A stretch of DNA of 64,000 nt from Candidatus Kerfeldbacteria bacterium (lineage in GTDB: Bacteria > Patescibacteriota > Patescibacteriia > UBA10025 > JAHIVO01), in assembly GCA_047946875.1 (NCBI GenBank), contig CP181398.1, positions 969,041-1,033,040 on the forward strand, read 5' to 3'. The notes beneath the pieces were generated by a model. It had not been told where the DNA came from. It was given only the letters and a program-made list of their open reading frames with translations, and made no database searches. The translations under genes and the position numbers were made by a program. Of this stretch, positions 38,367-60,123 are shown in pieces (position 1 is the stretch's first letter; each line of letters starts with the position of its first letter).

Positions 38367-41300
38367 TTAATCCATTCCTCCAGCTGGATCTGTACCTGCA
38401 CAAGCTGGATCAGGTTTACGTGGATTATAGTTACTACACTCTGGATCATCTGGTTGTGGTGTTGGTGCTTCACACTGACCACTAGCACATGAGCCCATGC
38501 ACTGTAGTGGTACTCCAACACATTCATCCCATCCCGGATGATATTGATCACTACAATAATATTCCATATATTGAGTTGAATTTACACATGTTATTTCATT
38601 ATATTCATCTTTATCATAACATTTACCAAATTCTGTAGGATTAAATCCTCCACAATCTCCTCCATCACACCAATTATCAGAATCATAACAAACACAGTTA
38701 GAACCAGCACAACCAATTGCACATGTCCAAAGTTCTGCTGGTTCACAGCCACTTGTACCACATTGATAGCCTTGGACATTACCTGCATTACATGTTTGAG
38801 AATGGTAACCAGCTAAATCAGTACAAGATGTTACAACGCTTTGTAAATCTGGGTCACGATAATCAATCCAACCGTCACAATCATCATCAAGATAGTTTAG
38901 GCACACTTCGTTATCGCTGCAATCCCAATCGTGATAAAAGTAAATATCATCATTATCGTTACCATTCACCCCATATGCATTCCACACTATTCGATTTTCA
39001 GAAATTGCCATATATCCCAAAGATATATATGGATCTGATGATCCACTCATTAATTCAGTAAGTCCTGCTGCTGTATTATCAAGATCATATAAATACAGTG
39101 GATTATCATCATTAAAATAAGAAGCTTTTAACAATATAATCTTTGAACCATCAATATCTAGTGCTTCTATATGGCCCTCGGGAATGCTATAAATCAATTG
39201 TTGGCCTGCTGTAGGGTTTGACAAATCATATAGATAAAGTTTGTTATAATTCTTCCAAATGATAGTATTGCCAGAAATTCTAGCAAACGCACCATCAGAT
39301 TCGGCTATCAGCTGCTTACCGGCAGCGGGATTGGATAGGTCAAACATATATATATACGGATTTTCGTCTCCCCAATCAACCCACACTATCTTACCTTCAT
39401 CGATATCTAATAAGTGTCTCTCTGCTTCAGTTCCAGGGAGTTGTTGGACTCCAGCAGCGGGATTGGATAGGTCGTAGTGGTAAATAAAATAGACTTCCCA
39501 CAAACCAGTTTCCGACCAAATGATATTATCACCTGATATTTCAAGTACATCAAGCTCATACAAATTAGAATCAGCTATCTGTTGAACACCAGCTCCTGGA
39601 TTAGATAGATTATAATAGTAAATAAAACCAGCTGTAGTCCACACTACATTATCACCCGAAATAGATAAATTAGTAACATACCAATCGGCGGATAAAGCAA
39701 TACTTTGAATTCCCTCTTGCGGATTATCAAAATCAAAGGTGTCTATATAGGTATCATCATAATTATATCTAGCCCACACTGCACGACTACCCGATATATC
39801 TGGCTTGATGTTATGTTCCCAGTCCCCATCAACTGTGTAGCCATATCCATGCGTTAATTTTGCTGGACCACGAGATGCAAGCTGTATCGGCGTATCATAT
39901 ACAAATCCCCCTATTGCAGAATTGACTGATAAACGAATTGTGTAGTCACCAATTGGCACATTCAATATATTCCATTCACCAAGAATGCCATCTATTACTG
40001 GTGTTGTGACTAGACCTCCTATTGCTACCCAATCATCTTTGCCTGTTTCGCTATATAAAAGCTGATATGATGTTTGAGGAAAACCAACTGTGGCAGCATG
40101 TGCTGTTCCCGTGATAGTTATTGTATCCAGCAGCAATTCCTGCGGATACAGATATGTATACAAAGCTGGACTAGTAATTTCAGCAACCTCAGTGACAGGG
40201 AATGGATATAATCCATTTACTTCAGCAGCGGCCTGAATTTCTGCAAAATGTGGTGTGCCATTAATAATAATTCCGTCATCATCGTCAAGTACTATAAGGT
40301 CAAATAATGCATAAGGGATATTAGGTGAATTTGCAAGTACGGTCGACATTACCAAACTCTCTGCTATATCTACACCAAGCATTTGACGTAACTGCCATGC
40401 AAAACCAACCCATGCCTGTCCCAGCCTATGAACTTCATCAACTCCGCCCTGGGGGTATTGATAATCATTTTCAGCAGTACGAATGTAAGTATCTTCTCCG
40501 AAAAAACCTTCACCAATAATCGGCTGATCAGTTGCATAAGTAGCAAAAATATCTGCCCACCCTTCTGATAAACCAATTCCTGCGTTAGTATCTGGTATGC
40601 CACCGGCCATATGGTCAATAAAATGACCGTATTCATGATATAGTATTGTATCATACGCACTATATATACAGCTTTGACCTAGCCATTGATCATATCCTGC
40701 GCGATAAAAACCTATTTCCTGGTCATCGTCGTTGTATGCAAAATATGCATTACATAATGTACTGCAACAACCAGACGTTCTATTTACTAACGCCCGTAAA
40801 GGAATATCTATTCCCGTCAATGGCACTGGCAAATGTTCCTGTGCCCAATCATGTATATATGTCGTGTGGTAATAGGCATTCACCTGCGACGTTAAAGACT
40901 CGTTATTACCATCTGGATTAAATGGTAGGTCAATTGATACACCGGGATCAGCCGACTCATCAAATTCAATGTTTTCTGCGCCACTCAAGGAATACACAGC
41001 AGCCCATTGACCAAATAATTGTGCCTGTACGTTTGTTGGACTCGTTTCAGTCGGGAATATAAAGCTACCATCGTCATTGGTAAACTGCTCACTCCCTGAT
41101 GTTGTTGAAACGGTTAAATCATCGAGTTCAAAATTCGTCAGATCGTCTAACGTCACTAATGGATCAAATAAAACGCCGCGGCCATGAACAGAACCCTGGA
41201 TAGTGGCGTACAGACGCTTATCACGGACTCGGGCAGCGCCAGTGTGTTTATCTACGAATACTGTTTCAACTGCTTCTTCATACTGTACTTTTTGCAACTT

Positions 41301-42224
41301 TCTCCAACGTCCATCCATATATTTAATTATTTCTTCTGAACCCTTGGGGATCAATCGACTGGCCTCCAAATTTAGGGATGTCGCAGCAGCTCGCTGAATA
41401 GATATATCATCCCGTTCCACTGCTTTCGGTAAATCAAGATCTGGGTATACTTGAGCGCTTGCATATACAACCGTGCTCTTATCTTTCCATTGTTTTATCG
41501 CAAAGTGTACATATGAACCCACCACATCAAGCCCATCGTGCATCTGAATAAAATCTACGAATACAGTTGATGGTTTATTTACCTCGCCCGGTATTGTAAC
41601 AATATAAGTATGCTTCATTTCCCCCGCTTTGATTCCACCGATGAAGTCAGTATTACTTACTAAATAATTCTCAAGTTCATCAACAACCGCAGCTTCTGTT
41701 TGAGGGTTCCCGCGCAGATCAACAGATCCAATGCTTTTTCTAACCGCATGCTGAGGCATTTCACTTTGTTGAATACCAAGATTCCATTCTTTAATTACAT
41801 TCGATAGTCTAGAATCTGGTAACCGTGTAGTCATTGTAGCAACAATTCCAAATGAAATTCCTGCTATTTCTTCATATGCCTCCAACTTTGGAACGGCTGA
41901 ATACGGAATCTGTGCAATAAATGCACCAGCGTCATAAACGCGTCTAATCATTCCGCCTTCGCGTTCAATAATATTCTTCACAGAATCTATGTCTTCATAT
42001 GCAGTCTCAGATACGATAACAAGTGCTTCCTGGTTAGCTTCTTCCTGTATGGTTGGTAATACGGCAGGTTGGGTAACAGTCGTGGTATCTTTCGATGCCA
42101 GCGTTAACAGGAATATTCCAAAAGCAACTCCAACACAGGACACCGCGATCATACCTACTCCAAGCGTTATCTTGGTCGCGTTGATTTGTCGTACCTTTAC
42201 TACGGTGTCTTGTTGGTTTTCCAT
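38367..42224 (-). CDS. Membrane-anchored thermolysin-like (HExxH...ExxxD) zinc metalloprotease with PD40/TolB-like beta-propeller repeats and a C-terminal Cys-rich region; paralogue e
   Basis: N-terminus MENQQDTVVKVRQINATKITLGVGMIAVSCVGVAFGIFLL. ILYHEYGHFIDHMAGG plus GLSEGWADIFA 20 aa downstream (compare thermolysin HELTH...NEAISDIFG). Five to six ~48-aa repeats of ISGDNIIW...IYxYDLSNPAAGxQQL. C-terminal ~200 aa with more than 30 Cys. Confidence 0.75.
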   Translation of the reverse strand: MENQQDTVVKVRQINATKITLGVGMIAVSCVGVAFGIFLLTLASKDTTTVTQPAVLPTIQEEANQEALVIVSETAYEDIDSVKNIIEREGGMIRRVYDAGAFIAQIPYSAVPKLEAYEEIAGISFGIVATMTTRLPDSRLSNVIKEWNLGIQQSEMPQHAVRKSIGSVDLRGNPQTEAAVVDELENYLVSNTDFIGGIKAGEMKHTYIVTIPGEVNKPSTVFVDFIQMHDGLDVVGSYVHFAIKQWKDKSTVVYASAQVYPDLDLPKAVERDDISIQRAAATSLNLEASRLIPKGSEEIIKYMDGRWRKLQKVQYEEAVETVFVDKHTGAARVRDKRLYATIQGSVHGRGVLFDPLVTLDDLTNFELDDLTVSTTSGSEQFTNDDGSFIFPTETSPTNVQAQLFGQWAAVYSLSGAENIEFDESADPGVSIDLPFNPDGNNESLTSQVNAYYHTTYIHDWAQEHLPVPLTGIDIPLRALVNRTSGCCSTLCNAYFAYNDDDQEIGFYRAGYDQWLGQSCIYSAYDTILYHEYGHFIDHMAGGIPDTNAGIGLSEGWADIFATYATDQPIIGEGFFGEDTYIRTAENDYQYPQGGVDEVHRLGQAWVGFAWQLRQMLGVDIAESLVMSTVLANSPNIPYALFDLIVLDDDDGIIINGTPHFAEIQAAAEVNGLYPFPVTEVAEITSPALYTYLYPQELLLDTITITGTAHAATVGFPQTSYQLLYSETGKDDWVAIGGLVTTPVIDGILGEWNILNVPIGDYTIRLSVNSAIGGFVYDTPIQLASRGPAKLTHGYGYTVDGDWEHNIKPDISGSRAVWARYNYDDTYIDTFDFDNPQEGIQSIALSADWYVTNLSISGDNVVWTTAGFIYYYNLSNPGAGVQQIADSNLYELDVLEISGDNIIWSETGLWEVYFIYHYDLSNPAAGVQQLPGTEAERHLLDIDEGKIVWVDWGDENPYIYMFDLSNPAAGKQLIAESDGAFARISGNTIIWKNYNKLYLYDLSNPTAGQQLIYSIPEGHIEALDIDGSKIILLKASYFNDDNPLYLYDLDNTAAGLTELMSGSSDPYISLGYMAISENRIVWNAYGVNGNDNDDIYFYHDWDCSDNEVCLNYLDDDCDGWIDYRDPDLQSVVTSCTDLAGYHSQTCNAGNVQGYQCGTSGCEPAELWTCAIGCAGSNCVCYDSDNWCDGGDCGGFNPTEFGKCYDKDEYNEITCVNSTQYMEYYCSDQYHPGWDECVGVPLQCMGSCASGQCEAPTPQPDDPECSNYNPRKPDPACAGTDPAGGMD

Positions 42225-42271
42225 ATATTTATTATTGGATAAATTAGATATTTATTTAGTAAGTATATGTA

Positions 42272-45200
42272 TTATCTATACACTGGCGTTGGACAACATG
42301 AATGATCATCATTTTCAGGCCTGCTACAATCAACATTACACTCACAAGTACGACTTACAGTATCACATTGATAACCACTTCTGCAGTCACAATCCATACA
42401 ATCTGTTTCAGTTAGTTCACCATCAATACATATTTTCCCGGTATCACCTGGTATATTACATTCTCCTGGTAAAACACCGCCCTCACAAACTTGTTCACAA
42501 TATCCTTCATCAGTACAAACATCTCCGGCTTCCACACATAGTCCTTCATTGTCTCCACAAGCAAAACAATGTGCCCATGAATCAAACCCACACGTACGAT
42601 CACCACAACTGCTTACAGCTGGAGTACTTTCACAATAAGCATCAGCCGTTCCTGTATCAACGCAAGTATCTACTGTGCAAGGATCATCATCAGCACAAGT
42701 TCTATTTTCTATACACGTAACACACTCGTTAATTGCTGTATTACAAATATAATCACTCTCACATCCACACTTGATACAGTCATTTGCTAAATAACGACCA
42801 TCACAATACTGACGGCTAGCATTGCAACTATAAGGATCCGTACCATCATCACAACCATCTCCAACATCAACATCAATTGTAGTTATTCCATAATTAGGTC
42901 CCGGACCTGCTATTGCAGGAATTGTTACATTAATATATTGCTCACCAACTATCGTCAGAAAAACTTCATGTTCATAATAGGGGTATCCAAATACTTCCAG
43001 CTTATGGACTCCTTCGGTAATAGAGATACGAACGGATGATGTTCCTTCAGAACTCTTTATATCTCTTTGAGCTTGAGCTTGAGGTTGATCATCTATATAT
43101 ACATACACTCTTCCATCTAGGCCTTCCGGATTGTTAATATTAATTTCAAGTATATCAGTATCCCCCCAGCCAATTTGGGCCATAGTATGCCAATCAAACA
43201 TAGGTTCTCCGAGATCATCACAGAAATGACCACAATCACTCCAAGCGCCATTCTTCATGAGACTATCAATTTGGTATGGACTGCAAATAATATCATTTTC
43301 ATTAGTCTTGGCTGAATTTCCTCCTGCAGCAATGACCCGATTAGCAGCTGTAGCACGTGCGTTGCATCCAATACTGTCTGTACGCCCATATTCATCCTCG
43401 GCAAAAAATACATGTGCTGATTCGTGAGCAGCAACACTTGAATCTCGGCGAAGATCACGCGCTCCCTCAAGAAAAATACCTATCTCATTATCACCAAACA
43501 CAGTGCCACCTGAACCGGAGTCTAAACGATAAATAGCGGAGCCAACTAACCTATAGTAACTATTACTTAGCGAATCTACGACTATACTCCCTGAGTATAA
43601 GGCATCTGCACTTTCAATATTATCACCAAACGTTGTTCCTCCTGTGCCAGAATCAAAGCGATAATCGTAAAACATATTAAACCCCGAAACATACACTTTA
43701 TCATGCACCGTATCAATAGCAATATCTTGAGGAATACTAATTCCTATGGTGTTCCAATTATCACCAAACACAGTGCCACCTGAACCGGAGTCAAAAAGTA
43801 CAACACGACCATTCATTTCATCAGCTACATAAACCTTATTACCCACACTATCAATGGCAATGCCTAATGGATTCCAAAAACGATTAGTTCCGCCCCATCC
43901 ATAGGATCCAAATGTTTCCCAATTATCACCAAATACCGTCCCGCCAGAACCCGAGTCAAAACGGGCAACACGATTATTAGATGTATCAACAACATAGACT
44001 TTATTATTAATATCATCAATAGCAATTCCTTTTGGACCATTAAATTGACCAACGCCGGATCCAACAGTTCCAAATTGTTCAATATTAAAACCAAGTGTAG
44101 TCCCGCCTGAGCCGGAGTCAAAACGTACAACACGGTTATTAGACGTATCAGCTACATAGACTTTGTTATTACCCGAATCAACTGAAACGCCCCACGGTGA
44201 TGAAAGTCCTAATCCCAAAGTCATACTCTCTTGATTCTGCCCGAATGTTGTCCCTCCTGAGCCGGAGTCAAAACGGGCAACACGATTATTGAATTTATCA
44301 ACTGTATATAATTTATTATTAATCTGATCAATCGCAAGGCCAGTTGGTTCATCCAAATTATTCATTCCATAAGACCAATTAAGAATAGCAAAGTGCCCCA
44401 GATATGCTTGAGGCCAATAATTATCGCCATTCACCGCTGGACGTAATTCATCCTTAACTACAAAAATAACAAAAGCTGTTTGTGCATTAAAATAATCAGC
44501 CATTTCTTGAGAGTATTTATCTACCTCGGATTGAAAACTATTTACAGTATCAAAACAAATATCAAAGTCAGTAGTACCAAATACACACACATTACGATTC
44601 CGCATTAATTGGTGCACCCAATACTTATTCTCAACATTTGTTGAAGGTTCATATTCAGTTTGTTGATCTGAATCAGCAGGATTTTCATAAAGTACATGAA
44701 ATGAAAGATTTTTACTCTCTGGAGCAGCATCGGCTAATCCATAAAGACCGTATAAAGTATTTAACGAGTGATCAATATATTGATCGTATGTCCAATTTTC
44801 ATCACCGGATCCACTGGCTGCACTCTCAACATAAATAAGATCAACGTAAATCAATCCGTGCATGCCACTTGCTCCCGGTGTAGAGCTTTTTTCTCCTCCG
44901 TCCATCTGTGATTCATAATAATCCTGGTGTATCTGAATTTCTCCTTGTCGCTCCTCTTTTGTTAGCGATGAATCATTATTAACATCTTCAATAATCATCT
45001 CTAATGCTTCTTCATCGGTTATTGTATCTTTTCCTAAATCTAAAACCTCTTTACGATCACTAACTACCACCTCACTATAAACTATTTTTTTATATGAATT
45101 GAGAAACTCCTGGGTTACAGCACTATACTCATCAAGTGAATCTTTGGCTAATATATCATTACTTGTGATAAGCTCTGTTACTAATGCGTTTTCACGAATC

Positions 45201-45598
45201 ACTTCATAATTATCCTCTGCTATCCGACCAATAAAAAGGTGCTCTGACTCAAGACTATTTAACTCCTGATTTTTTCTTTTGGATAAAATGAGAAATATTC
45301 TATCCCCTCTATTCTCAATTTCTTCTTTGAACGCAGCAATATCCGACTCCGGTTTATCTGAATTGACCACAAGAGCTGTTAAATCAAAATTCTCCACGAC
45401 AACCATGCGAAAATTTGGTCCTTCCTCAACAACTGGTAAAGGCTGTACAATAGGTGCTGGTTGTTCAGTTTTTGTCATAAGTGATCCAAGCACTCCAACA
45501 AAAGCCAACCCCACAAAAAACGCTGCTATCATCCCAACCGTAATTCCTACGGCTAGACGAGTTTCGGTAGCTACTTTTGTGACTTGTTTATTCTCCAT
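42272..45598 (-). CDS. Membrane-anchored HExxH metalloprotease-like protein with NHL beta-propeller repeats and a C-terminal Cys-rich module; paralogue d
   Basis: The ORF runs to 45643; the start was trimmed to the MENKQVTKV ATG (45596-45598) by analogy with the MENQ starts of the paralogues. TM LAVGITVGMIAAFFVGLAFVGVL. NHL repeats YVADTSNNRVVRFDSGSGGTT (about five copies). AAHESAHVF (HExxH). The C-terminal Cys module ends SCCPTPVYR. Confidence 0.7.
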   Translation of the reverse strand: MENKQVTKVATETRLAVGITVGMIAAFFVGLAFVGVLGSLMTKTEQPAPIVQPLPVVEEGPNFRMVVVENFDLTALVVNSDKPESDIAAFKEEIENRGDRIFLILSKRKNQELNSLESEHLFIGRIAEDNYEVIRENALVTELITSNDILAKDSLDEYSAVTQEFLNSYKKIVYSEVVVSDRKEVLDLGKDTITDEEALEMIIEDVNNDSSLTKEERQGEIQIHQDYYESQMDGGEKSSTPGASGMHGLIYVDLIYVESAASGSGDENWTYDQYIDHSLNTLYGLYGLADAAPESKNLSFHVLYENPADSDQQTEYEPSTNVENKYWVHQLMRNRNVCVFGTTDFDICFDTVNSFQSEVDKYSQEMADYFNAQTAFVIFVVKDELRPAVNGDNYWPQAYLGHFAILNWSYGMNNLDEPTGLAIDQINNKLYTVDKFNNRVARFDSGSGGTTFGQNQESMTLGLGLSSPWGVSVDSGNNKVYVADTSNNRVVRFDSGSGGTTLGFNIEQFGTVGSGVGQFNGPKGIAIDDINNKVYVVDTSNNRVARFDSGSGGTVFGDNWETFGSYGWGGTNRFWNPLGIAIDSVGNKVYVADEMNGRVVLFDSGSGGTVFGDNWNTIGISIPQDIAIDTVHDKVYVSGFNMFYDYRFDSGTGGTTFGDNIESADALYSGSIVVDSLSNSYYRLVGSAIYRLDSGSGGTVFGDNEIGIFLEGARDLRRDSSVAAHESAHVFFAEDEYGRTDSIGCNARATAANRVIAAGGNSAKTNENDIICSPYQIDSLMKNGAWSDCGHFCDDLGEPMFDWHTMAQIGWGDTDILEININNPEGLDGRVYVYIDDQPQAQAQRDIKSSEGTSSVRISITEGVHKLEVFGYPYYEHEVFLTIVGEQYINVTIPAIAGPGPNYGITTIDVDVGDGCDDGTDPYSCNASRQYCDGRYLANDCIKCGCESDYICNTAINECVTCIENRTCADDDPCTVDTCVDTGTADAYCESTPAVSSCGDRTCGFDSWAHCFACGDNEGLCVEAGDVCTDEGYCEQVCEGGVLPGECNIPGDTGKICIDGELTETDCMDCDCRSGYQCDTVSRTCECNVDCSRPENDDHSCCPTPVYR

Positions 45599-45669
45599 GT
45601 TTTTATCATTAAATGTATTAGATGATTTATTTTGTTGAGCCATATTTAATATATATTAATAAATATTTT

Positions 45670-47919: not shown

Positions 47920-47990
47920 AGATTTATTATTATACGATTTTTTTAGTTGAATGGGCATTAGTACAAAATATTATGAACGGATAGTATATT

Positions 47991-50900: not shown

Positions 50901-51989
50901 TACAAAACGTCCCGTTACATTGCCTTGTATCTGAGCAAAGATAAGGCCATTTTCCCGGAACACTTCACCGTTATCACGGTCTACTATTGCGATATCCGTA
51001 GAACCTTTAAAGGCATAAATATTAACTCTACGCCAAGCATTATCAATGTATCTAACTGATGATTCAACTATTGGTGTTTCATAATTACTATCATCAAGCG
51101 TGAGTGCTCCAACTATCGAAGCTTTATCTGTACTATCATCAATTCCCAGTACTTCTGTTGCTCGTTGTTCTAGTATTCTTTCTAACTGAGGCGTTGCTGT
51201 AACAAGTGACAATTCTGGATAAACATTACTTGACGCGTATTGGATGACACTTTCGGTGTCAGTCATTTTAATAGCGAAATGAACATAGGTGTCTTCAACC
51301 GGTAAACCGTCTTTCATTTGTACGAAGTCAACAAAGGCTGTAGCTGCTCTACTTTCTGTAGCTGGGATTATGACACTGTATGTTTCTTCAAAATTATTGA
51401 CTGATAGACTTCCAATTAAGTCAGAACTTAATTGGGACTGTACTGCATCAACAATAGCTTGTTTCTCTGTAATCTTAGTGGTCGCAATTAGTTCAGTTCC
51501 ACTCTTTCCGGCTAATAGTGCAGGCGGCTGCTGTTTGTTAAATTCACTTGTATTCCATTGATCAATGACCTCCTCATAATATGCCTGCTCTTTCGGATCA
51601 TATTCCGACTGGATAGCACCAAAAAAGACATCCTTCACACTGTCGTCAGCTCTTAGTGCTTCAATGCTTGAATATGGAATTGTTGCGTACAAAGCAACCT
51701 CTGATGATTGATCGGCAATTATTCCACCGCTTTTTTCAATAATACTGATAAGAGAGGTGGTATCGACATCAGTAACTAAGAGTATCATTGCATCCCTGTT
51801 TTGATCTACGGCAACTAAGGTATCTTCTGGTGGTGGTTGAATTGCTTCTATATCCTGATCAAGCTTTGAAAAAAGCAGCAATCCAAAAGCAGCACCAACA
51901 CATAATACCGCGATCATGCCTATTCCAAGCATTATCTTAGTCGCGTTGATTTGTCGTACCTTAACTTTAGTATCTTGTTGGTTTTCCAT
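47991..51989 (-). CDS. Membrane-anchored thermolysin-like zinc metalloprotease with PD40-like beta-propeller repeats and a C-terminal Cys-rich module; paralogue b
   Basis: The start was trimmed to MENQQDTKVKVRQINATKI (the ORF runs to 52007). IIYHEYGHFVDHKLGG plus GLSEGWADIFS. Repeats DIYYYDLNNPGAGEQ. The C-terminal Cys module ends ACCSTPVHR. Confidence 0.75.
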   Translation of the reverse strand: MENQQDTKVKVRQINATKIMLGIGMIAVLCVGAAFGLLLFSKLDQDIEAIQPPPEDTLVAVDQNRDAMILLVTDVDTTSLISIIEKSGGIIADQSSEVALYATIPYSSIEALRADDSVKDVFFGAIQSEYDPKEQAYYEEVIDQWNTSEFNKQQPPALLAGKSGTELIATTKITEKQAIVDAVQSQLSSDLIGSLSVNNFEETYSVIIPATESRAATAFVDFVQMKDGLPVEDTYVHFAIKMTDTESVIQYASSNVYPELSLVTATPQLERILEQRATEVLGIDDSTDKASIVGALTLDDSNYETPIVESSVRYIDNAWRRVNIYAFKGSTDIAIVDRDNGEVFRENGLIFAQIQGNVTGRFVEFDPRTTGDSLTEAPLKNMKVWSDDNDVAYTDESGDFSLDVSTTPIGITAAMRGEHLFSGTWSEPWVYYENDNATESIDEIIHLNPTGNDEHSTVQVNAYYHGSFIHDWIESELGSQVSVINEIFFGLDYPVRLHVNNPDPDYICNASYDRYFFHIEFYLSGDGICLNPAYDTIIYHEYGHFVDHKLGGITNKGLSEGWADIFSTFATGQPLIGENYWAMGEHIRTADNDYQYPENPEGVDEHDLGQAWVGLAWDLRRALGAETAEDIVLPTILANSSDIPSAVLDLLIIDDNDANLGNGTPHLGAIINAAENHNLYPFHLDTVALITQPVETIYLSELFLAGENFVSVMGNANALGIVAELDDYKLYYGEGTNPDTWTQIIEGFTDVDNGVIGEWDVHNLQLGVYTLKLIVSTSVGYFIDTQTVSIGIIPPIQLTTDLGSQNRPQISGDIIVWQDERNGYDIYYYDLNNPGAGEQRITFDSDFQRYPIVDQNYIVWLDYTKKEIYYYDLNNSVAGEQLAATGLIGCCNSKMDMANNKIVFHDEGTGPKEIYLFDIINPGLGIQQLTDDSSIQSYDASMDGDTIVFFSTPRDFLDDDDIYYYQLDKPELGAQLAVSKATWLRELDFSDGNIVWDTYNYNLFIYNITSQTMERVFDHPADQQQPSIDGDYIVFMDTRSGNDDIYFYDLANPTLSGVQLTFDTDRQTNPAISGDKVVWMDNRAGGSNWDIYWTYINNDPVIRAIDDREVIAGSSFNLLLKGMDFDGDAIEYYVDNLPAGANLLSANGVFMWTPTIEQVGSYDLTFGVREVANPEKFNTVSMTLTVITCSVNEDCYDSNLCTNDICVGTGVDSYCTNAPVASECGDYECGWDTWKHCSVCGDYNGSCVGGNTCLDNYCYSDCGSTPAGACNGVGNGALLCEDGQLIDTDCRVCGCSGGYSCWDNGQGDYYCECSVNCANYPNHACCSTPVHR

Positions 51990-52044
51990 ATATTTATTAT
52001 TAGACATATTAGATATTTATTTAGTAAATATGTGAAATTTATTT

Positions 52045-54399
52045 TTATCTATACACTGGTGTTGGACAACATGGATGATCATCATTAGCGGGATTATCAC
52101 AATTAACATTACATTCACAATAACGATTTTCTGGGTCCGTGAAGTTACATTGATAACCGCTTCTACACCCACAATCTAAACAATCTGTTTCAACTAATTC
52201 ACCATCAATACATATTTTTCCAGTATCGCCCACTATATTACATTCTCCTGGCAGAATACCACCTTCACAGATTTGTTCACAATAACCTTCATCAGTACAT
52301 ACGTCTCCATCATCAACACATAGTCCTTCATTATCTCCACAAGCAAAACAATGTGCCCATGAATCAAAACCACAAGTACGATCACCGCAACCACTTACAG
52401 CTGGAGTACTTTCACAGTGTGCATCGGGTGTCCCAGCGTCAACACAAGTATCTACTGTACACCAATCATCATCAGCACAATCTCTGTTAACTTTACAAAG
52501 AAATTCTACTTCTACTGTTAGTTTTCTTTCTTCCATTGGTACACTATCATCAGAAACAGATAGAGGCGTAATTACTACACCTGTTTCTAGATCAGTCCAT
52601 GAGTTATTAAGCTGAAGTGCTGTATTTTTGCATACACCACCCCAAGGTGAACAATTTCCGCAACCACCATAAGGAGGTCCACAAAGATCAAGAAGGAATG
52701 ATTTATTTCTATGAAAATCAATTCCAGCTGAACGCTCTGTGGTATGAATAAGTGCGCCAGTCATAAGATTAGACCAATTAACTGCAAACTCATCAAAACC
52801 AATTGGTTGACGATACTCAATGTATATATAGTGATCATCTCCTCGTGGTATTTTTATGGCTTTAAGTTTTAATCTATCAGAAATTTCAATAGGATATAAT
52901 TCATATGTTCCACTATTGGTAATAGTTTGAATTTCAATACCATTCATCCATCCTGTTACATCTTTATGGAGAGCATTATAGTGAGACATTGAATAATAAC
53001 CCATAATATCATGAGCATCTTTATATTCATCACTACTATTAAAAACACATTCGCTCAATGGAGTTGTAAGTGCGTTACAGCGAAGAAGTGCTGCATGTTT
53101 ACTACCAAGATTATGTCCGAATTCATGTCCAACAATCCTTGAAGAATTATTAAGATCAAATTCATAATTTGGATATTCCGGATCTTCATAAGGAGGGAAG
53201 TATTCTGAAATAGCTGTCATATAACTTATACTATACTCGTCACCAGACTCCGTACCAGGCACGGTAATAGCATCTTGATCATATGATCCAAGGGTTGCCG
53301 ATCCAAGCCACCCACACGAATCTCCGTCACTATGTTGCCATGGTGCTATTGCTACCACATGATCGTATTCCGTAAAATCAATACCATTAGCATCATAAGC
53401 AACTTGCATAGATTGTTCAAAAAAAGTTTCCCATATTTGATCCTCTTCCCCATGATCACATGTTTTATTCATACTAATCTTATACCGTGAATTTGGATTA
53501 ATAGGATAAATATCAGCTGAGGCTGTAGGGTTTGCTATACCTGCAAAGTGTAGTTGATTATATGAATTTTCTACATAGTAATCATCAACATTATCCATAA
53601 CTTTTCCGATAGTTTCATGCTCCGGGCTTGATTCAGAAGTATTGGCAAAATCAACTTTTAATATTATGGTCTTGCGCTCACCAAGGTATGCTCTACTAGA
53701 CTTTTCTAGAGTTACTCTATAGCCTGAAAGACTATTTGCAGACTTTTCAGCAAGGTTGTTTGCTCCATCAAATAATAGTTTATTATCAATAGTATAGCCA
53801 ACTATTTGAGCTACTGTTCTGGAAGTTGTTATTTCTGGTGGTGGTGTTGAAGGGAATAAACTTATTCTATTATTATTTGATACAAAGGTATATAGTTCTT
53901 TACTTATGCCTTCTTCAAAACCATCAAAAGTAGTTATATAGACTTTTCCATCATAAGTATTTAATATTTCTGTACAATTATTAGAGTAGGTATTTACTTT
54001 ATCTAGCTCTGCTTTGGTAAATACTGAATCCAAAGCTGCGGATGAATCTACCTGCATCAGATCTGATAAAAGCTGTTTTCTTTCAATAATGAGTTCTTGT
54101 ATTAAACTGACATTCTTGCCTACTGAAAGTGCTTGTCTGAGATCAATATTTAATTTACCCATAGAGTTTGTCATCTCTTCAATGTCAGTACTATCTGCTA
54201 CTAGTTTTTCTAATACCAGTGGCCTTGATTCAATACAAGTTACTTTTACTATCTTTTGTTCAACAAATGATATTGGTGTACTAAAAAACCCAACAACAAT
54301 CCCTGCTGCCAAACACAAAGACGCTCCCATCATCAGAGCAACGCCAATCTTTTCTTCAATTGAAACTTTAGTTTTTACTTGTACTTCGTTTGATTCCAT
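52045..54399 (-). CDS. Membrane-anchored reprolysin-like zinc metalloprotease with a C-terminal Cys-rich module; paralogue a (first gene of the array)
   Basis: MESNEVQVKTKVSIEEKIGVALMMGASLCLAAGIVVGFF. RIVGHEFGHNLGSKHAALLRCN (HExxHxxGxxH). The C-terminal module ends PCCPTPVYR. Confidence 0.8.
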   Translation of the reverse strand: MESNEVQVKTKVSIEEKIGVALMMGASLCLAAGIVVGFFSTPISFVEQKIVKVTCIESRPLVLEKLVADSTDIEEMTNSMGKLNIDLRQALSVGKNVSLIQELIIERKQLLSDLMQVDSSAALDSVFTKAELDKVNTYSNNCTEILNTYDGKVYITTFDGFEEGISKELYTFVSNNNRISLFPSTPPPEITTSRTVAQIVGYTIDNKLLFDGANNLAEKSANSLSGYRVTLEKSSRAYLGERKTIILKVDFANTSESSPEHETIGKVMDNVDDYYVENSYNQLHFAGIANPTASADIYPINPNSRYKISMNKTCDHGEEDQIWETFFEQSMQVAYDANGIDFTEYDHVVAIAPWQHSDGDSCGWLGSATLGSYDQDAITVPGTESGDEYSISYMTAISEYFPPYEDPEYPNYEFDLNNSSRIVGHEFGHNLGSKHAALLRCNALTTPLSECVFNSSDEYKDAHDIMGYYSMSHYNALHKDVTGWMNGIEIQTITNSGTYELYPIEISDRLKLKAIKIPRGDDHYIYIEYRQPIGFDEFAVNWSNLMTGALIHTTERSAGIDFHRNKSFLLDLCGPPYGGCGNCSPWGGVCKNTALQLNNSWTDLETGVVITPLSVSDDSVPMEERKLTVEVEFLCKVNRDCADDDWCTVDTCVDAGTPDAHCESTPAVSGCGDRTCGFDSWAHCFACGDNEGLCVDDGDVCTDEGYCEQICEGGILPGECNIVGDTGKICIDGELVETDCLDCGCRSGYQCNFTDPENRYCECNVNCDNPANDDHPCCPTPVYR

Positions 54400-54541
54400 A
54401 AGCCTATATTTCTATATATTTAAAATATTAAATTTAATATTAAAAAGCGGAGGAAATTCAAATAATATATTTCACCCCCACCCAACTATTAATTACCAAA
54501 CGATCTATTATTATTTTTTTGTTGAGTTCATTTCTACCCTA

Positions 54542-54570
54542 ACTATGGCACAAAAAATCCCTTTAGTCAA
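54542..54570 (-). promoter_or_regulatory. Copy 2 of the recurrent promoter cassette: TTGACT - 17 nt - TGcCATAGT (minus strand), 140 nt upstream of the first metalloprotease gene
   Basis: The plus strand reads tttctaccctaactatggcacaaaaaatccctttagtcaa. The reverse complement gives TTGACTaaagggattttttgtgcCATAGTtagggtagaaa. It is the only promoter-like element between the subtilase stop (54737) and the 54399 start. Confidence 0.55.
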
Positions 54571-54736
54571 TCTCTTTGAAATTAATAAACTAATAAATTA
54601 AAATATTATGAATTGCCAATTAATATTATAAAAACTATTTACCTATATACCAAAACACCACGGATATATATCCGTGGTGAAATGGTTACCCCTAAATTTA
54701 ATGATTTAAGGAATCATATTATATTCTATGAAAAGA

Positions 54737-57700
54737 TTACTCTATTCCTGCCGCTGGCTGTGACTGCAAACCGCCACACTGCCATGAACCACCTAATTTT
54801 TTGCAACACTCTCCCCCCATACATGTATATCCTGTGGAACACGCTACTCCGCATAAACCACATTGATTTATATATTGCCCACTCTCATTACAATAATCAC
54901 TTCCATTACACTCGCCAGAGGGTGTGCCATCATAACATTGAACATCATTGAATGAATAATTACTCGTGTTTAAAAAATCATGGTACCGTTTTGGCCAGTC
55001 AGACCTATAATCAACACCGTCAAAACTAACAACAAACAACAGCCCATAGTCGCCTGGTACTACTAAATTTGCATATCCATCGTCATCGGCATCAGCTATT
55101 ACCGGATTAACAAACCTACTTACAAGATTAATTGGAAAATCTGGTAGCATGTTTCCATCTTTATCAAAAGCATAAACATAGCCAAATTCATTCATCCCGC
55201 AAATTATTTCAGAAATTCCATCTCCTGTAATATCCCCGATCACTGCTCCGCTCGCTAAGCCTAATTCACCAAAATCGTTAATGAAAACATCTTTTGGAAC
55301 TTTAAACCGTAACGTGGCATTGCCATTAGCATCAAGATCCCACACCGACAAATCATGGCCAGTATATACGATTTCTAAAGTACCGTCATGTTCTAAATCT
55401 GTCACTACCGGAGCTGCCTTTACAGTTGAAAAGGGGCTGTAATATGGATCAACTGGAACACCATACGGAGAATTACCAATATGATTACCAGAAGAATCAA
55501 GGATACTCATTCCTCCCTGAAAACCGAGAATAAGCTCTTCTGATGCATCTCCTGTTATATTTGCTAACGTTACCTCGGATAATTCCGGAAAGGTCATAGC
55601 ATACGAACCGACTGGGAAATTAACAATATTGTCATTGGTAGTTATGTCAATCGCGTGTATATCAGCCCAACGCTCGGAAGCAGTAGGTGCATCATAATGT
55701 AAAACTGTATGAATAATTTCTTTATTCCCGTCACCATTCAGATCTGCTACAGATGGAGTGGATTTTACTTTTATATCACCAGGTATTGCATAGGGTGCTA
55801 AAAAATCAGATCCATCATCGTTTAAAACATATCGTGTAATTCTGTCGCTCATTACAATAATTTCCAAATCACCATCACCATCCAGATCACTAACTACCGG
55901 TTGCGGTCCAGCAACAAAACCATAATAAAAATCTGAATAGCTTATACCATCACGTTGCCAAAGTATGGATCCGTCATCGTTATAGACATAAAAATTACCA
56001 TCCAAAGCCGCCACAAGCAATTCAAGATCTCCATTTTGATCCAAATCAACCACTACTGGCGAACCCCAGTAACCCCATTCATTTTCAACCGGCCAACCTA
56101 CTAAATCATTTCCTAAATGGTCAAAAGCGTAAATTTTTCGTACCGTTAATCCGCCTCCTTCAGAACACATTTTACAAGGTCCTGATGCAATAATATAATC
56201 CGTAACGCCATTCTGATCAAAATCAACCACCAACGGCGTAGTAATAAAAACTTCACCATCTCCAGTTAATTCATATATTATTTCAACATCCATGTTAGTA
56301 GTATTAGAATATGAATCTTCTATATGCCAAACATTTATTTTATCAACACTCTTTTCACCAGTATATGATTGAACTGTAAGCCGGATAGTAGAAGAAGATC
56401 CATGGTTTAATAACCTTGAATCATCTATTTGAGCTAATAATCCATTGGTTACCGCAGTAGTTGATTCAGTAACTAGTGTCCATGAATCAGGATAAGCATA
56501 ATTGCCATATTCAACCTTATAGCTAATAAAATCAGTTCCTCCAGCTGATCCCTCAATATTAATAACTTCACCTGAACCATCTATATGAAAATTTTTAAAA
56601 TACCTATCATCATAGTCGGGGCTTAAAAAAGCTAATGGTGGAGAATCAATCTGTAGCGCCTGATAAAGATTTATCCGACCGGTCCCAACATAGTCACTTC
56701 GTTGGCCAATTAATATATCATTTACTCCTGTATGCAGGATATTTTTAACATCTTGGGCATCCAAACTTGGATCTTTAGATAAAATTAAACCCGCTAAACC
56801 AACCACTTGTGGTGTGGCCATGCTGGTACCAGACCAAGAAGCATAATTATTTCCCGGCAAAGCACTTAATATCTCATGTCCCGGTGCTGCAACATCCACC
56901 CATGAACCATAAGTAGAAAAATAAGCCCTAGTATCATTACTATCAGTTGCTGCTACTGAAATAACAGCGTCATAAGCGGCGGGATAGTTTTGGGTGATTA
57001 TAAAATCATTTCCCGCAGCTGCAACTAAAACAACTCCCTGATCAGCTGCATAATCAATAGCTGCCTCTTCATCCGAATTATATGGACCACCATAGCTCAT
57101 ATTTATCACACTTGCTCCATTATCAGCAGCATAATGCAATGCCTGAATTGTATCACTTTTCAATAATGCCGCATTTCCATTAGTTCTCTTCCATCCTGCC
57201 CGTAACGGCATAATACTACAATCCTGACATACGCCGGCAATGCCTATTCCATTATTAGTTACTGCGGCTGCAATACCGGAAACATGCGTGCCGTGACCAT
57301 AAACATCCATTGGATCGCTATCCTCAATAGTACAATCCTCATCAGCCGCACACAACTCTAATGCAGTCGTTCCTTCCAGATTAACAAAGTCATAACCTGC
57401 CATCATATTAGCAGACAAATCTTCATGGTTATAATCAACGCCAGTATCAATAACCGCAATAATAACTGACGAGTTACCTGTTGTAATTCCCCAACCTTGC
57501 TCAGACTCCATTACTTGGTGAGACCACTGGTCAGAAAACATAGGATCATTAGTCAAGACATAAGAGTAATAATTTGGTTCTACATTTTCAATACTGGCAT
57601 CCTTTTCAAACTCCTTAATAATATCAACAATATTTTCATCTGCATCTTGGTCAAATTTAATCAAGAAGAGACCTTCCCAATTATGCTCTCCACGATCATT

Positions 57701-58132
57701 TGCATTAGGAACTAGTTGCTCAATGTTAGTCTCAAGTACCGGTGGCAAAGAACGGTTTAACTTAGATAGTGATAACAATTTTTGAGCAACTTCCTTTTCC
57801 GTATCAATGCCAGAATTTTTGGTAAAACGGACCAACAACTGACCTAATGCATAATTTTTTACTAATTCCTCACCGCAAGAGACAATTTCGCCATTTGAAT
57901 CCTTTTTTGAAATACACGGTATTTCATAATCAATAACTTCTTTTTCTTCTACAACATCAGGTATAGGTTGTAAAACACTTTTTTCTGTTTTATCGGTTAA
58001 ATCACCAATTGTTGTTATTAACGCAATTCCAAGTAGAGCTGCTGCTACCACACCAAACGCCAAACCTACAATAAGGCGTGTTTTGGTAGTTGACTTGGTA
58101 ATTGTTTCTTGTTTGTCAGGTTGATTTTCCAT
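54737..58132 (-). CDS. Membrane-anchored subtilisin-like serine protease (S8) with FG-GAP/VCBS-type repeats and a Cys-rich C-terminal tail
   Basis: N-terminus MENQPDKQETITKSTTKTRLIVGLAFGVVAAALLGIALI (signal anchor). Catalytic triad motifs VIIAVIDTGVDYNHEDL (Asp), YGHGTHVSGIAAA (His) and GTSMATPQVVGLAGLIL (Ser). Repeats DLDGDGDLEIIV, DLNGDGNKEII and DLDQNGDLELLV. C-terminal CGLCGVACSTGYTCMGGECCKK. Confidence 0.85.
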   Translation of the reverse strand: MENQPDKQETITKSTTKTRLIVGLAFGVVAAALLGIALITTIGDLTDKTEKSVLQPIPDVVEEKEVIDYEIPCISKKDSNGEIVSCGEELVKNYALGQLLVRFTKNSGIDTEKEVAQKLLSLSKLNRSLPPVLETNIEQLVPNANDRGEHNWEGLFLIKFDQDADENIVDIIKEFEKDASIENVEPNYYSYVLTNDPMFSDQWSHQVMESEQGWGITTGNSSVIIAVIDTGVDYNHEDLSANMMAGYDFVNLEGTTALELCAADEDCTIEDSDPMDVYGHGTHVSGIAAAVTNNGIGIAGVCQDCSIMPLRAGWKRTNGNAALLKSDTIQALHYAADNGASVINMSYGGPYNSDEEAAIDYAADQGVVLVAAAGNDFIITQNYPAAYDAVISVAATDSNDTRAYFSTYGSWVDVAAPGHEILSALPGNNYASWSGTSMATPQVVGLAGLILSKDPSLDAQDVKNILHTGVNDILIGQRSDYVGTGRINLYQALQIDSPPLAFLSPDYDDRYFKNFHIDGSGEVINIEGSAGGTDFISYKVEYGNYAYPDSWTLVTESTTAVTNGLLAQIDDSRLLNHGSSSTIRLTVQSYTGEKSVDKINVWHIEDSYSNTTNMDVEIIYELTGDGEVFITTPLVVDFDQNGVTDYIIASGPCKMCSEGGGLTVRKIYAFDHLGNDLVGWPVENEWGYWGSPVVVDLDQNGDLELLVAALDGNFYVYNDDGSILWQRDGISYSDFYYGFVAGPQPVVSDLDGDGDLEIIVMSDRITRYVLNDDGSDFLAPYAIPGDIKVKSTPSVADLNGDGNKEIIHTVLHYDAPTASERWADIHAIDITTNDNIVNFPVGSYAMTFPELSEVTLANITGDASEELILGFQGGMSILDSSGNHIGNSPYGVPVDPYYSPFSTVKAAPVVTDLEHDGTLEIVYTGHDLSVWDLDANGNATLRFKVPKDVFINDFGELGLASGAVIGDITGDGISEIICGMNEFGYVYAFDKDGNMLPDFPINLVSRFVNPVIADADDDGYANLVVPGDYGLLFVVSFDGVDYRSDWPKRYHDFLNTSNYSFNDVQCYDGTPSGECNGSDYCNESGQYINQCGLCGVACSTGYTCMGGECCKKLGGSWQCGGLQSQPAAGIE

Positions 58133-58179: not shown

Positions 58180-58208
58180 AACTATAGCACAAAAAAGCCC
58201 TTTAGTCA
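58180..58208 (-). promoter_or_regulatory. Copy 1 of the recurrent promoter cassette: TTGACT - 17 nt - TGcTATAGT (minus strand) ~45 nt upstream of the subtilase start
   Basis: The plus strand reads tttctaccttaactatagcacaaaaaagccctttagtcaa. The reverse complement gives TTGACTaaagggcttttttgtgcTATAGTtaaggtagaaa, a consensus extended -10 promoter. Confidence 0.6.
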
Positions 58209-58247
58209 ATTTGAAACTAAATATTTTTTTTATTTATTTAGATAATT

Positions 58248-58754
58248 TTATGGCACTGCTATTCCATCCGGATTTGCTACATGCATCCCCGGATTAATAT
58301 CATTAACTCCAACTTCAAGAGTATAAGTCATGTCATAATACATATATGGACTTGCTCCTATTCCCGTATAATTATATTCTGTTCCATTCAAAGAAGGATC
58401 TGTGGGAACTATTTCCATATAATCTGGTACCAACCCTTCAAAATTATCTGGATAATTTCCATTATTATCTTTATAATTTTCCAAAGCTTCCTGCATTTTT
58501 TTAATATCAGTAAGTCTTGTCTCATCTCTATCTGATGCTTCGTTACTTTCTTCTTCAGTTAACTCTTTGGCTGGTTCACCAATCGTTTCTTCGTTAATAG
58601 CAGTTGGTTGAAAAGATGTTTCTGGTCCAGTATTAACGATAGCTCCCTGATTACTTTCTTCCTGCCACAAAGCAAAACCAAACAGAATTAACAATGCAAC
58701 GACTGCAATGATTATAATAGTTGGAAATCTTTTTTCACTATTAATAATTTTCAT
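58248..58754 (-). CDS. Pseudopilin/type IV pilin-like protein (GspG-like C-terminal domain) with an atypical N-terminal anchor
   Basis: LTDIKKMQEALENYKDNNGNYPDNFEGLVPDYMEIVPTDP matches the GspG/PulG signature (AL..Y..DNG.YP...GL..L....P.DP). The N-terminal hydrophobic segment KRFPTIIIIAVVALLILFGFAL lacks the canonical G/FTLIE prepilin site. The ORF track starts at a TTG (58775); the first ATG is at 58754. Confidence 0.45.
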   Translation of the reverse strand: MKIINSEKRFPTIIIIAVVALLILFGFALWQEESNQGAIVNTGPETSFQPTAINEETIGEPAKELTEEESNEASDRDETRLTDIKKMQEALENYKDNNGNYPDNFEGLVPDYMEIVPTDPSLNGTEYNYTGIGASPYMYYDMTYTLEVGVNDINPGMHVANPDGIAVP

Positions 58755-58821
58755 ATTAGATAAATTATACCGCAAATAAAAAAGACTGTCGATATAATCA
58801 ACAGCCTTAAGTCAATTTCTT

Positions 58822-60036: not shown

Positions 60037-60123
60037 GCCGAGGTGGTGAAATTGGTAGACACGCTAGCCTTAGGAGCTAGTGCTTGTAAAAGCATGGGAG
60101 TTCAAGTCTCCCCCTCGGCACCA
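60037..60123 (+). tRNA. tRNA-Leu (anticodon TAG), class II long variable arm, CCA encoded
   Basis: GCCGAGGTGGTGAAATTGGTAGACACGCTAGCCTTAGGAGCTAGTGCTTGTAAAAGCATGGGAGTTCAAGTCTCCCCCTCGGCACCA. The 7-bp acceptor stem GCCGAGG pairs with CCTCGGC. Anticodon loop CTTAGGA. Long variable arm. T-loop GTTCAAGTC. Confidence 0.85.

Follow-up and report, generated by a model that had tools for sequence, protein, structure and literature searches.

Bacteria of the Candidate Phyla Radiation (CPR) are tiny and mostly episymbiotic, with reduced genomes, and their nutrients must come from outside the cell. To our knowledge, the way in which they organise the enzymes on their surface is largely unknown. Elsewhere, several N-terminal signals are carried by large surface or secreted proteins. 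The YSIRK-G/S signal of Firmicutes (TIGR01168 / PF04650) places a conserved motif in an extended n-region ahead of the hydrophobic core; it is spread over surface proteins of unrelated folds, and is thought to set the site of secretion and not whether a protein is secreted. The KxYKxGKxW signal of accessory-Sec glycoproteins (TIGR03715) is a long, conserved, Lys-rich n-region on very large surface proteins, while ESPR (PF13018), found in autotransporters and two-partner secretion, is a conserved extension ahead of the export signal of very large secreted proteins, including proteases. In eukaryotes, the type II transmembrane serine proteases (matriptase, hepsin and the TMPRSS family) have a short cytoplasmic tail, an uncleaved N-terminal signal anchor and, outside the cell, a protease domain carried on accessory domains that form a stem; tail and anchor govern trafficking and shedding. 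Class III prepilins (TIGR02532) combine a charged peptide, a Gly and a long hydrophobic helix. It is to these systems that the N-termini described below bear a likeness, in the case of prepilins for two sequence types (D and B) only.

The N-termini belong to large proteases of Candidatus Kerfeldbacteria, encoded in a window of 64,000 nucleotides (the whole stretch of DNA that was analysed). We argue that they probably form a selected, lineage-specific and exchangeable type II signal-anchor module, referred to here also as the tag, which serves a co-regulated group of proteases.

A protease island with a common N-terminal module

The eight genes of a minus-strand tandem array (33806-58132) each encode a large protease, and together they cover four or more catalytic types; a ninth protease, a second subtilase, lies 9 kb off. 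Each N-terminus consists of a hydrophilic peptide of 17-22 residues followed by a hydrophobic helix of 22-26 residues. The genes and their modules are as follows; f and g lie just beyond the range (38367-58132) covered by an earlier note on this DNA.

54737..58132, minus strand, S8-1: S8 subtilase, 1131 aa (Pfam Peptidase_S8, 4.8e-52), with FG-GAP propeller and short Cys-rich C-terminus; module 57944..58132, minus strand, D type, 63 aa, with tail MENQPDKQETITKSTTKTR, helix LIVGLAFGVVAAALLGIALITTIG and linker DLTDKTEKSVLQPIPDVVEE
52045..54399, minus strand, gene a: M6-like HExxH metalloprotease, 784 aa, with Cys-rich C-terminal domain; module 54283..54399, minus strand, Q type, 39 aa, MESNEVQVKTKVSIEEKI followed by GVALMMGASLCLAAGIVVGFF
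47991..52007, minus strand, gene b: HEYGH...SEGWAD metalloprotease, 1338 aa, M36-like (below threshold), with beta-propeller repeats, He_PIG and Cys-rich C-terminus; module 51870..51989, minus strand, B subtype of the D type, 40 aa, counted from Met7 of the ORF
45670..47958, minus strand, gene c: ORF of 762 aa, paralogue of a and f; module 47803..47919, minus strand, Q type, 39 aa, counted from Met14 of the ORF
42272..45643, minus strand, gene d: NHL-repeat protein with HESAH motif and Cys-rich C-terminal domain; module 45422..45598, minus strand, D type, 59 aa, counted from Met16 of the ORF
38367..42224, minus strand, gene e: 1285 aa, paralogue of b (32% aa identity overall); module 42105..42224, minus strand, B subtype, 40 aa
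36012..38339, minus strand, gene f: 775 aa, paralogue of a and c; module 38223..38339, minus strand, Q type, 39 aa
33806..35953, minus strand, gene g: M6/M11-like metalloprotease, 715 aa, with Big_7 domain and dockerin-like C-terminus; module 35837..35953, minus strand, Q type, 39 aa

S8-1 is named by NCBI as an S8 family serine peptidase of Candidatus Kerfeldbacteria. Beyond the module, g is only ~30% identical to a, c and f, and a homologue search with f returned its own paralogues and one weak match only, adding no carriers; the a/c/f family is almost an orphan. At the other end of the proteins, a Cys-rich module is common to almost all nine tagged proteases (that of d has 82-85% nucleotide identity to those of a and f), and the Cys-rich domains end in CCPTPVYR or similar, with neither LPXTG nor a C-terminal helix.

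The N-terminal module takes up the first 40-65 residues. Its tail is rich in Thr, Lys and Val and closes on a [KR]-[IL] pair, and its helix is rich in Gly, Ala and Ser and is 22-26 residues long in all carriers. d and the subtilases also conserve a Pro-rich linker that follows the helix just outside the membrane, a feature limited to the D type. Two sequence types are found. The pre-anchor peptides that the earlier note had quoted for the first type, D/B, are all present exactly as given (b MENQQDTKVKVRQINATKI, e MENQQDTVVKVRQINATKI, d MENKQVTKVATETRLAVG and S8-1 MENQPDKQETITKSTTKTRLIVG), b and e having the B subtype. Its second set (a, c, f and g) does share Q[VI]KTKVSIEEKI, and the tail of this Q type is QVKTKVSIEEKI. 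The Q and D types are weakly but detectably related.

BLASTP scores reach 37-76 bits for pairs within a type and 23-35 bits for B-D pairs, against a maximum of 21.6 bits among 1,521 control pairs with the N-termini of 117 unrelated subtilases. In composition-adjusted BLASTP, d and the subtilase are 43% identical across 65 aligned positions (E 9e-13). Since the type scores exceed the control maximum and this E-value is significant, the similarity is above chance, and the match with the subtilase, which the earlier note allowed might be low-complexity only, is not of that kind. It is limited to the first 63 residues, beyond which the two sequences are unrelated. A larger shared unit including the prodomain had been considered when an early BLAST alignment of d and the subtilase reached 153 residues, and was rejected once the composition-adjusted comparison left ~63.

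AlphaFold draws the N-terminus of d as a single long helix (residues 3-44; pLDDT 72-87 across residues 11-40). The hydrophobicity of the tail alternates as in a strand, whereas AlphaFold renders the tail as low-confidence helix. Conservation in the membrane helix has no significant helical periodicity (p 0.11 and 0.16), and one-sided conservation, which would argue for protein contact, was dropped as a candidate. A single N-terminal hydrophobic segment of at least ~20 residues, the criterion for a type II signal anchor, is present in all carriers, and no consistent small-x-small site after the helix was seen on reading their sequences. From sequence, the predicted topology has the N-terminus inside and the bulk of the protein outside, with the helix left uncleaved; the catalytic part is placed outside because of the Cys-rich, dockerin, FG-GAP and Ig-like domains.

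Carriers in other genomes and selection on the peptide

The module is translated and is common to several enzyme families and genomes. An exhaustive profile search of 1.84e9 representative proteins (E<=1e-3) gave 12 matches, comprising six window genes, the second subtilase 9 kb beyond the window and, from other metagenomes, five proteins. Next to one of these five lies another outside carrier, making six proteins from four other metagenomic sources, and hence the motif is not confined to recently duplicated paralogues, the outcome that the earlier note had named as fatal to its idea. The outside carriers are:

P0007: C25 gingipain-like protease (Pfam), Q tag, other metagenome
P0010 and P0012: S8 proteases, Q tag, other metagenomes
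P0009: M6-like protease, as a/c/f, D tag, other metagenome
P0008: d-like protein, D tag, other metagenome
L004:6168-9986: b/e-type protease, Q tag

Because Q and D tags are shuffled over S8, C25, M6-like, M36-like and d-like carriers, the type of tag is not tied to the enzyme family. In a small uncultured group (Candidatus Kerfeldbacteria and a few relatives), the large multidomain peptidases that begin with the module represent five or more catalytic types. Pilin-like genes are found near some carriers (58248-58775 in the window; T4SS_pilin in L006).

The earlier note proposed testing whether the peptides are enriched in large extracellular proteins. In ~86 kb of this genome scanned with the profile, the nine peptidases are the only matches; the other large exported proteins of the window lack the tag, and at least eight other exported window proteins have classical signal or lipoprotein peptides. 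Classical signal peptides also stand at the N-terminus of the protease homologues examined in other phyla, and no tag was found in 80 loci from other phyla with b/e-type homologues (1.06 Mb, 12,725 ORFs; best score 9.6 bits). A degenerate DNA pattern of the Q-type helix core had no match in 185,579 GTDB species representatives and matched a Loki's Castle contig only in JGI metagenomes, and the corresponding D-type pattern had none in metagenomes. Both patterns do match known tag copies, so that either the tag is rare or these collections do not hold the relevant genomes.

Across genomes the core of the module is [TV]-K-[VL]-x-[TV]...[KR]-[IL] followed by the helix. Between genomes, the 33-residue Q core has 48-73% amino acid identity. 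Its identical residues have the same codon in ~13-69% of cases (mostly 30-55%), around the background level for the rest of these genes (~0.4-0.55), and the changes fall mostly at third codon positions. The peptide is thus conserved across genomes while synonymous sites are saturated, which demonstrates purifying selection on the peptide. Mean column entropy in the Q type is 0.79 bits in the tail core, 0.79 bits in the helix and 2.09 bits after it, so the edge of conservation is sharp and lies at the outer end of the helix. The conserved pre-anchor peptide put forward in the earlier note is real, but the helix is conserved equally, and the leading MENQ is peculiar to this genome.

DNA exchange, co-regulation and the proposed role

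Within the window, part of the N-terminal identity is the result of recent DNA exchange. A 616-nt tract occurs in two copies (81.8% nucleotide identity), one across the junction of d with e and one across that of a with b; each takes in the 3' end of one gene, the spacer and ~40 codons at the start of the gene that follows:

42117..42715, minus strand: junction tract, covering the 3' end of d (Cys-rich), the intergenic spacer and ~36 codons at the start of e
51882..52497, minus strand: partner copy, covering the 3' end of a, the intergenic spacer and ~42 codons at the start of the b ORF

The N-termini of b and e owe their near-identity to this tract, and it is largely a copy at the DNA level; codon identity over the first 40 codons is raised both for b/e (0.75 against 0.49) and for g/f (0.67 against 0.48). 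The module has thus moved between genes by recombination. It could be argued that this is all there is to explain, i.e. that generic anchors were spread or homogenised among neighbouring proteases by duplication, gene conversion and recombination of 5' ends, with no specific recognition. The nine carriers detected in this genome lie within ~37 kb, a clustering that also fits local spread by recombination; the Cys-rich C-terminal domain has been shuffled likewise, and accessory genes were not found near carriers. A generic anchor would, however, be expected to drift as fast as the adjoining sequence, whereas here the peptide is kept between genomes with synonymous sites at background, and conservation ceases right where the helix ends on its outer side. 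Codon identity between d and the subtilase (0.31 against a background of 0.41) shows no excess despite 43-46% amino acid identity, and both tag types recur on differing enzyme families in several genomes. We therefore regard a mere by-product of recombination as rather unlikely; if that is what the tag proves to be, it would still illustrate clearly how modules are shuffled from one gene to the next across their junctions.

Could the conservation instead reside in the nucleic acid, as a shared 5' leader, a translation-initiation region or a small-RNA target that co-regulates the protease genes? Three elements were noted beside S8-1 and gene a:

58181..58209, minus strand: promoter-like element TTGACTAAAGGGCTTTTTTGTGCTATAGT, upstream of S8-1
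54542..54570, minus strand: the same promoter-like element again, ahead of gene a
54656..54679, minus strand: terminator-like hairpin and T run, downstream of S8-1

The shared promoter-like element ahead of both genes suggests that S8-1 and a are co-regulated, the copy at 54542..54570 probably being the promoter of an a-g operon, and the high nucleotide identity of b and e (~-50 to +110) includes non-coding sequence. However, that upstream identity is due to the junction-spanning copy, and the codon pattern, with third positions changing and amino acids kept between genomes, largely refutes a nucleic-acid explanation. Folding of the 5' regions is not significant (z -1.8 to +1.3) and no Rfam family was found in the region; with the codon pattern, this led us to discard an RNA element, and we find such an origin hardly plausible.

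Under the signal-anchor reading that we prefer, SRP and Sec would insert the module with its N-terminus inside, and the uncleaved helix would hold the protease at the outer surface of the membrane. Because tail and helix are conserved well beyond the needs of insertion, they would probably work together as one handle, either for a partner that the proteases share, if there is one, or for contacts between anchors, and this handle could serve the sorting, clustering or controlled release of the co-regulated proteases. A bolder version sees a novel CPR sorting or assembly tag, by which a membrane or cytoplasmic partner factor, or anchor contacts, would gather serine, cysteine and metallo-proteases into a surface complex or for joint release, for instance where the bacterium touches a host cell; we offer it tentatively, as a real but minor possibility. 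If true, the CPR would have its first known N-terminal sorting signal that is specific to one class of proteins. The tag also provides a sequence handle for finding the protease arsenal of this lineage, a way into testing whether CPR bacteria sort or cluster surface enzymes, and a case in which to study the making of new protease architectures through recombination at conserved gene ends.

Comparison with known N-terminal signals

The earlier note proposed that the peptides are recognised by a particular secretion or sorting route dedicated to their carriers. A functional module fits both the uncoupling of tag type from catalytic family and the purifying selection, but the dedicated route gained no direct support. 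In favour of a YSIRK-G/S- or KxYKxGKxW-like pathway with its own machinery are the unusually long and conserved n-region, the presence of the tag on unrelated catalytic families within a single functional class of surface proteins, and the classical signal peptides of the segment's other exported proteins and of homologues in other phyla. Against it, six N-termini compared with NCBIfam and Pfam at E<=10 gave only sub-threshold matches to generic membrane helices, and none to the models for TIGR01168, TIGR03715, ESPR, Tat or prepilin. The YSIRK string is absent from every sequence, and the G/S and KxYKxGKxW motifs are missing too. Also counting against the analogy with these two signals are the anchor length of the segment and the b/e identity, which is largely a DNA copy. 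The accessory genes that the note had suggested looking for were not found either: carrier neighbours in four loci have nothing in common, with no SecA2/SecY2, sortase or rhomboid near carriers, and the carriers in the window, L003, L004, L006 and L007 have no accessory Sec genes (SecA2/SecY2, Asp proteins) within 10 kb. Two unannotated neighbours of carriers in two genomes (462 and 446 aa) were considered as a shared accessory gene, but are unrelated, and nothing else recurs. Since conservation is equally strong in helix and tail, any signal would not lie in the tail alone. A dedicated pathway is, in our judgement, decidedly unlikely.

An RR pair, as in the S/T-R-R-x-F-L-K motif of Tat signals, occurs in 0 of 16 tails. 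The Cys of the Q type does not make a lipobox of the form [LVI][ASTVI][GAS]C at the end of the h-region; it lies mid-helix in A-S-L-C (Leu at -1), and P0012 and L004:6168-9986 have Ser in its place. Prepilin-type signals, cut after a conserved Gly ahead of the helix so that the proteases are displayed on or with pili, might be suggested by the Gly before the hydrophobic stretch in the D and B types ([KR]-[ILV]-x-[VIL]-G) and by the pilin-like genes near some carriers. The G-F-T-L-x-E pattern is missing, however: position +5 is Met or another residue in the D and B types and never Glu, position -2 is uncharged, and the Q type has no conserved Gly there; together with the lack of a TIGR02532 match, this makes pilus display very improbable.

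Set against the systems introduced at the outset, the signal-anchor module differs from each in its own way. YSIRK-G/S has a short, cleavable h-region, usually with a C-terminal LPXTG, whereas the tag has an anchor-length segment of 22-26 residues that is itself conserved, without LPXTG, and its carriers are all peptidases of a CPR lineage. The cargo of KxYKxGKxW consists of Ser-rich adhesins and that of the tag of proteases, with neither SecA2/SecY2 nor glycosyltransferases among the neighbours. ESPR belongs to diderm Proteobacteria and is followed by a cleavable signal peptide, while the helix of the tag appears to stay as an anchor. In the type II transmembrane serine proteases, the order of tail, anchor, stem and protease domain is alike and there is no sequence relationship, and the tag, unlike theirs, has been swapped among serine, cysteine and several metallo-peptidases.

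The protease array and its N-terminal module

Eight large genes lie in tandem at 33806-58132 on the minus strand, and their products, with that of a second subtilase gene in the same genome, can be described as follows.

54737-58132, minus: S8-1, subtilase with an FG-GAP propeller (Pfam Peptidase_S8, 4.8e-52)
52045-54399, minus: gene a, HExxH protein with weak M6 and reprolysin model matches
47991-52007, minus: gene b, motifs HEYGH...SEGWAD, Peptidase_M36 match below threshold
45670-47958, minus: gene c, HExxH protein with weak M6 and reprolysin model matches
42272-45643, minus: gene d, NHL repeats and an HESAH motif
38367-42224, minus: gene e, motifs HEYGH...SEGWAD as in b
36012-38339, minus: gene f, HExxH protein with weak M6 and reprolysin model matches
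33806-35953, minus: gene g, M6/M11-like protease with a dockerin-like end
L003:2397-5708, about 9 kb past window position 64000: S8-2, S8/FG-GAP subtilase of 1103 aa, D-type tag MSNKATTKLDTDIRVKLGLSLGMIAAAFVGMAFIGVLS
58181-58209 and 54542-54570, minus: two copies of a promoter-like element, before S8-1 and gene a
54656-54679, minus: terminator-like hairpin after S8-1

The array proteins correspond to XOU94161-94167 (Candidatus Kerfeldbacteria) and are also present on a 1.31 Mb contig. Identity is 62-75% among a, c and f, about 30% between g and these three, and just 32% between b and e overall (35% outside the tag). The NHL repeats of gene d (43487-44341, minus) include DNA segments repeated internally almost unchanged (identity up to 97.5% over 40 nt, and 69-83% where the match is longer), a sign that the repeats expanded recently.

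The promoter-like element (TTGACT-N17-TATAGT/CATAGT with an upstream TG; in full TTGACTAAAGGGxTTTTTTGTGCxATAGT) was found upstream of S8-1 and gene a only, within the window and L003; S8-2 lies outside the tandem array and is without it. Because this element is shared, a hairpin follows S8-1, and the spacers among genes a-g are only 26-58 nt, the arrangement suggests a single-gene S8-1 unit and a predicted a-g operon under the same control.

The peptides quoted in the earlier note, one motif for a, c, f and g (Q type) and another for d, the subtilase, b and e (D type, with b and e as its B subtype), were all found exactly as given in the window translations. The conserved Met of b, c and d is encoded by an ATG inside the longest ORF, and the upstream ATG of b has no equivalent in e in their alignment. 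Each tagged protein has a tail of 17-22 residues and then a hydrophobic segment 22-26 residues long. The subtilase match is real, since composition-adjusted BLASTP aligns the first 63 residues of d and S8-1 (E 9e-13) and the two are unrelated beyond them, so that the shared unit is local and not a low-complexity effect. As a control, 13 tag sequences were set against the N-terminal 75 residues of 117 unrelated subtilases, and the highest score among the 1,521 pairs was 21.6 bits. Tag pairs within one type score 37-76 bits, b/e against D type 23-35 bits, and the best Q-to-D and Q-to-B pairs 22-32 bits. Separate Q and D profiles recover each other's members at 12-15 bits, with none of 12,725 background ORFs above 9.6 bits. 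As the cross-type scores exceed control and background, the two motifs represent branches of a single, weakly related module family.

Mean column entropy in Q-type tags is 0.79 bits both over the last 12 tail residues and over the helix, and rises to 2.09 beyond it; the helix is thus conserved equally to the tail, and conservation does not extend past the outer end of the helix. D-type tags additionally keep a Pro-rich linker (KTE..QP[IL]P.VVEE in d and S8-1, looser in S8-2 and the metagenomic protein P0008). AlphaFold, run with an eight-sequence alignment, predicted one helix over residues 3-44 of d, with a mean pLDDT of 72-87 at residues 11-40, against 56 for the first ten.

Distribution among enzymes and genomes

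An exhaustive profile search of 1.84 billion representatives returned 12 matches at E<=1e-3, comprising six window genes, S8-2 and five proteins from other samples, and hence the tag extends beyond the tandem paralogues. Carriers outside this genome are of several enzyme types.

P0007: C25 gingipain-like cysteine protease with FG-GAP repeats, Q tag
P0008: d-like, D tag
P0009: M6-like, as a/c/f, D tag
P0010: S8 subtilase, Q tag
P0012: S8 subtilase, Q tag, on a contig from Loki's Castle deep-sea sediment (SDBT01, PMC6401483)
L004:6168-9986, adjoining P0012: b/e-type, Q tag

Tags are thus D or Q on subtilases, Q or D on M6-like proteins and B or Q on b/e-type proteins, which uncouples the tag from the catalytic domain. 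P0014, the nearest S8-1 homologue, retains a decayed D tag (22.5 bits). The other carrier loci have a G+C content of 41-42%, against 36.5% for the window.

Exact-pattern scans, with both patterns validated on known tag copies, bear out the rarity of the tag: none of 185,579 GTDB species representatives matched the Q pattern, whose sole match in JGI metagenomes was the Loki contig, and the D pattern had none in metagenomes. Across the window and its flanks the profile matches nine peptidases only, while at least eight other exported proteins of the window use classical signal or lipoprotein peptides (e.g. 344-1600, 2980-8109, 27191-29455 and the M23 peptidase at 31014-31745). None of the 80 loci recovered for b/e-type homologues in other phyla (Omnitrophota, Planctomycetota, Elusimicrobiota, Woesearchaeota, Methanosarcina and others) has the tag, and those homologues examined begin with ordinary signal peptides. 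Among GTDB genome representatives (L010-L089), the nearest b/e-type relatives belong to these five named groups and not to other CPR bacteria, which hints that this metalloprotease may have been acquired horizontally and then given the local anchor tag.

A second module, Cys-rich and C-terminal, has 10-29 Cys among the final 160 residues, with CCPTPVYR as its end in a, d and f. It lies at 36012-36455, 42272-42715, 47991-48440 and 52045-52497 (all minus), and at the C-termini of c, e, S8-1, S8-2 (L003:2397-5708), P0007-P0010 and L004:6168-9986. Of 15 tag carriers 13 have it, as against only 4 of the 117 control subtilases; it matches no Pfam family and moves between enzyme families as the tag does.

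Further features concern the other exported proteins. Three otherwise different ones (1739-2854, 2980-8109 and 9622-9936, minus; one of 1709 aa) share an internal V.V.VLPNLS stretch and similar C-terminal peptides (...TYTAAADF, ...TYTCAGDF and ...WTATADY), possibly a domain or signal that their C-termini have in common. Predicted lipoproteins with lipobox-type signals cluster at 24331-25179, 25176-26126, 31014-31745 and 32797-33411 (minus); among them are a protein with tandem DTTFVELPPDTVTIF repeats and an M23-like peptidase, and every one has an ordinary signal, not the protease tag.

Selection and DNA copying

The tag similarity could be a pure by-product of DNA copying, and this accounts for much of the identity inside the window. 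A 616-nt tract (42117-42715 against 51882-52497, minus strand) is 81.8% identical and spans two gene junctions, from the Cys-rich 3' end of d/a through the spacer to the first ~40 codons of e/b. The b and e tags (80% identical) fall within it, and hence derive from a copy across the gene junction, of about the same age as the a/c/f duplications. Such a tract speaks for segmental copying or gene conversion without regard to gene boundaries in the array. Similarly, about 110-130 nt at the 5' end of g are 78-79% identical to the 5' ends of a, c and f. The by-product explanation is, however, weakened by the cross-genome data. The 33-residue Q core keeps 48-73% amino-acid identity between genomes, yet codon agreement at identical residues is only about 13-69% (mostly 30-55%), around background level, and nucleotide changes fall mostly at third codon positions; the region is thus translated and under purifying selection. 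Codon identity between d and S8-1 likewise shows no excess (0.31 against a background of 0.41). Selection and DNA copying each contribute to the similarity of the tags.

Proposed anchoring and known signals

The earlier note took the peptide for a recognition signal of a dedicated secretion or sorting route, like YSIRK or KxYKxGKxW. Such a route may exist but gains no support here: the tag matched no curated N-terminal family (YSIRK, KxYKxGKxW, ESPR, Tat, prepilin or any other) even at E<=10, and no gene recurs beside the carriers at four loci. A small protein directly upstream of S8-1 (58248-58775, minus) combines a hydrophobic segment at its N-terminus with C-terminal sequence resembling pseudopilins (type II secretion G-like); it is not recurrent near other carriers. 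The Q-type Cys was rejected as a lipobox residue, being outside any lipobox and not conserved. An RNA element was also rejected, with no significant RNA structure in the 5' regions; the Rfam scan of the window matched a single tRNA gene (60037-60120, plus) and nothing in the tag 5' regions.

The best-supported reading of these sequences makes the tag a type II signal-anchor module, lineage-specific and exchangeable, which would head a set of large surface peptidases and be kept by selection acting on both its cytoplasmic and its membrane-embedded part. We infer membrane tethering with the N-terminus inside because an anchor-length helix precedes extracellular-type domains, and the degree and sharp boundary of conservation may further reflect a shared partner or anchor-anchor association. 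The module offers a concrete, testable starting point for studying how CPR bacteria organise their surface enzymes, with its mechanism an inferred one. The tag is real and absent from the curated libraries searched. It differs from prepilin signals in that the Gly before the helix in the D/B type does not stand in a prepilin context, and in the Q type there is no such Gly; it is a new sequence version of the specialised N-terminal export or anchor regions.
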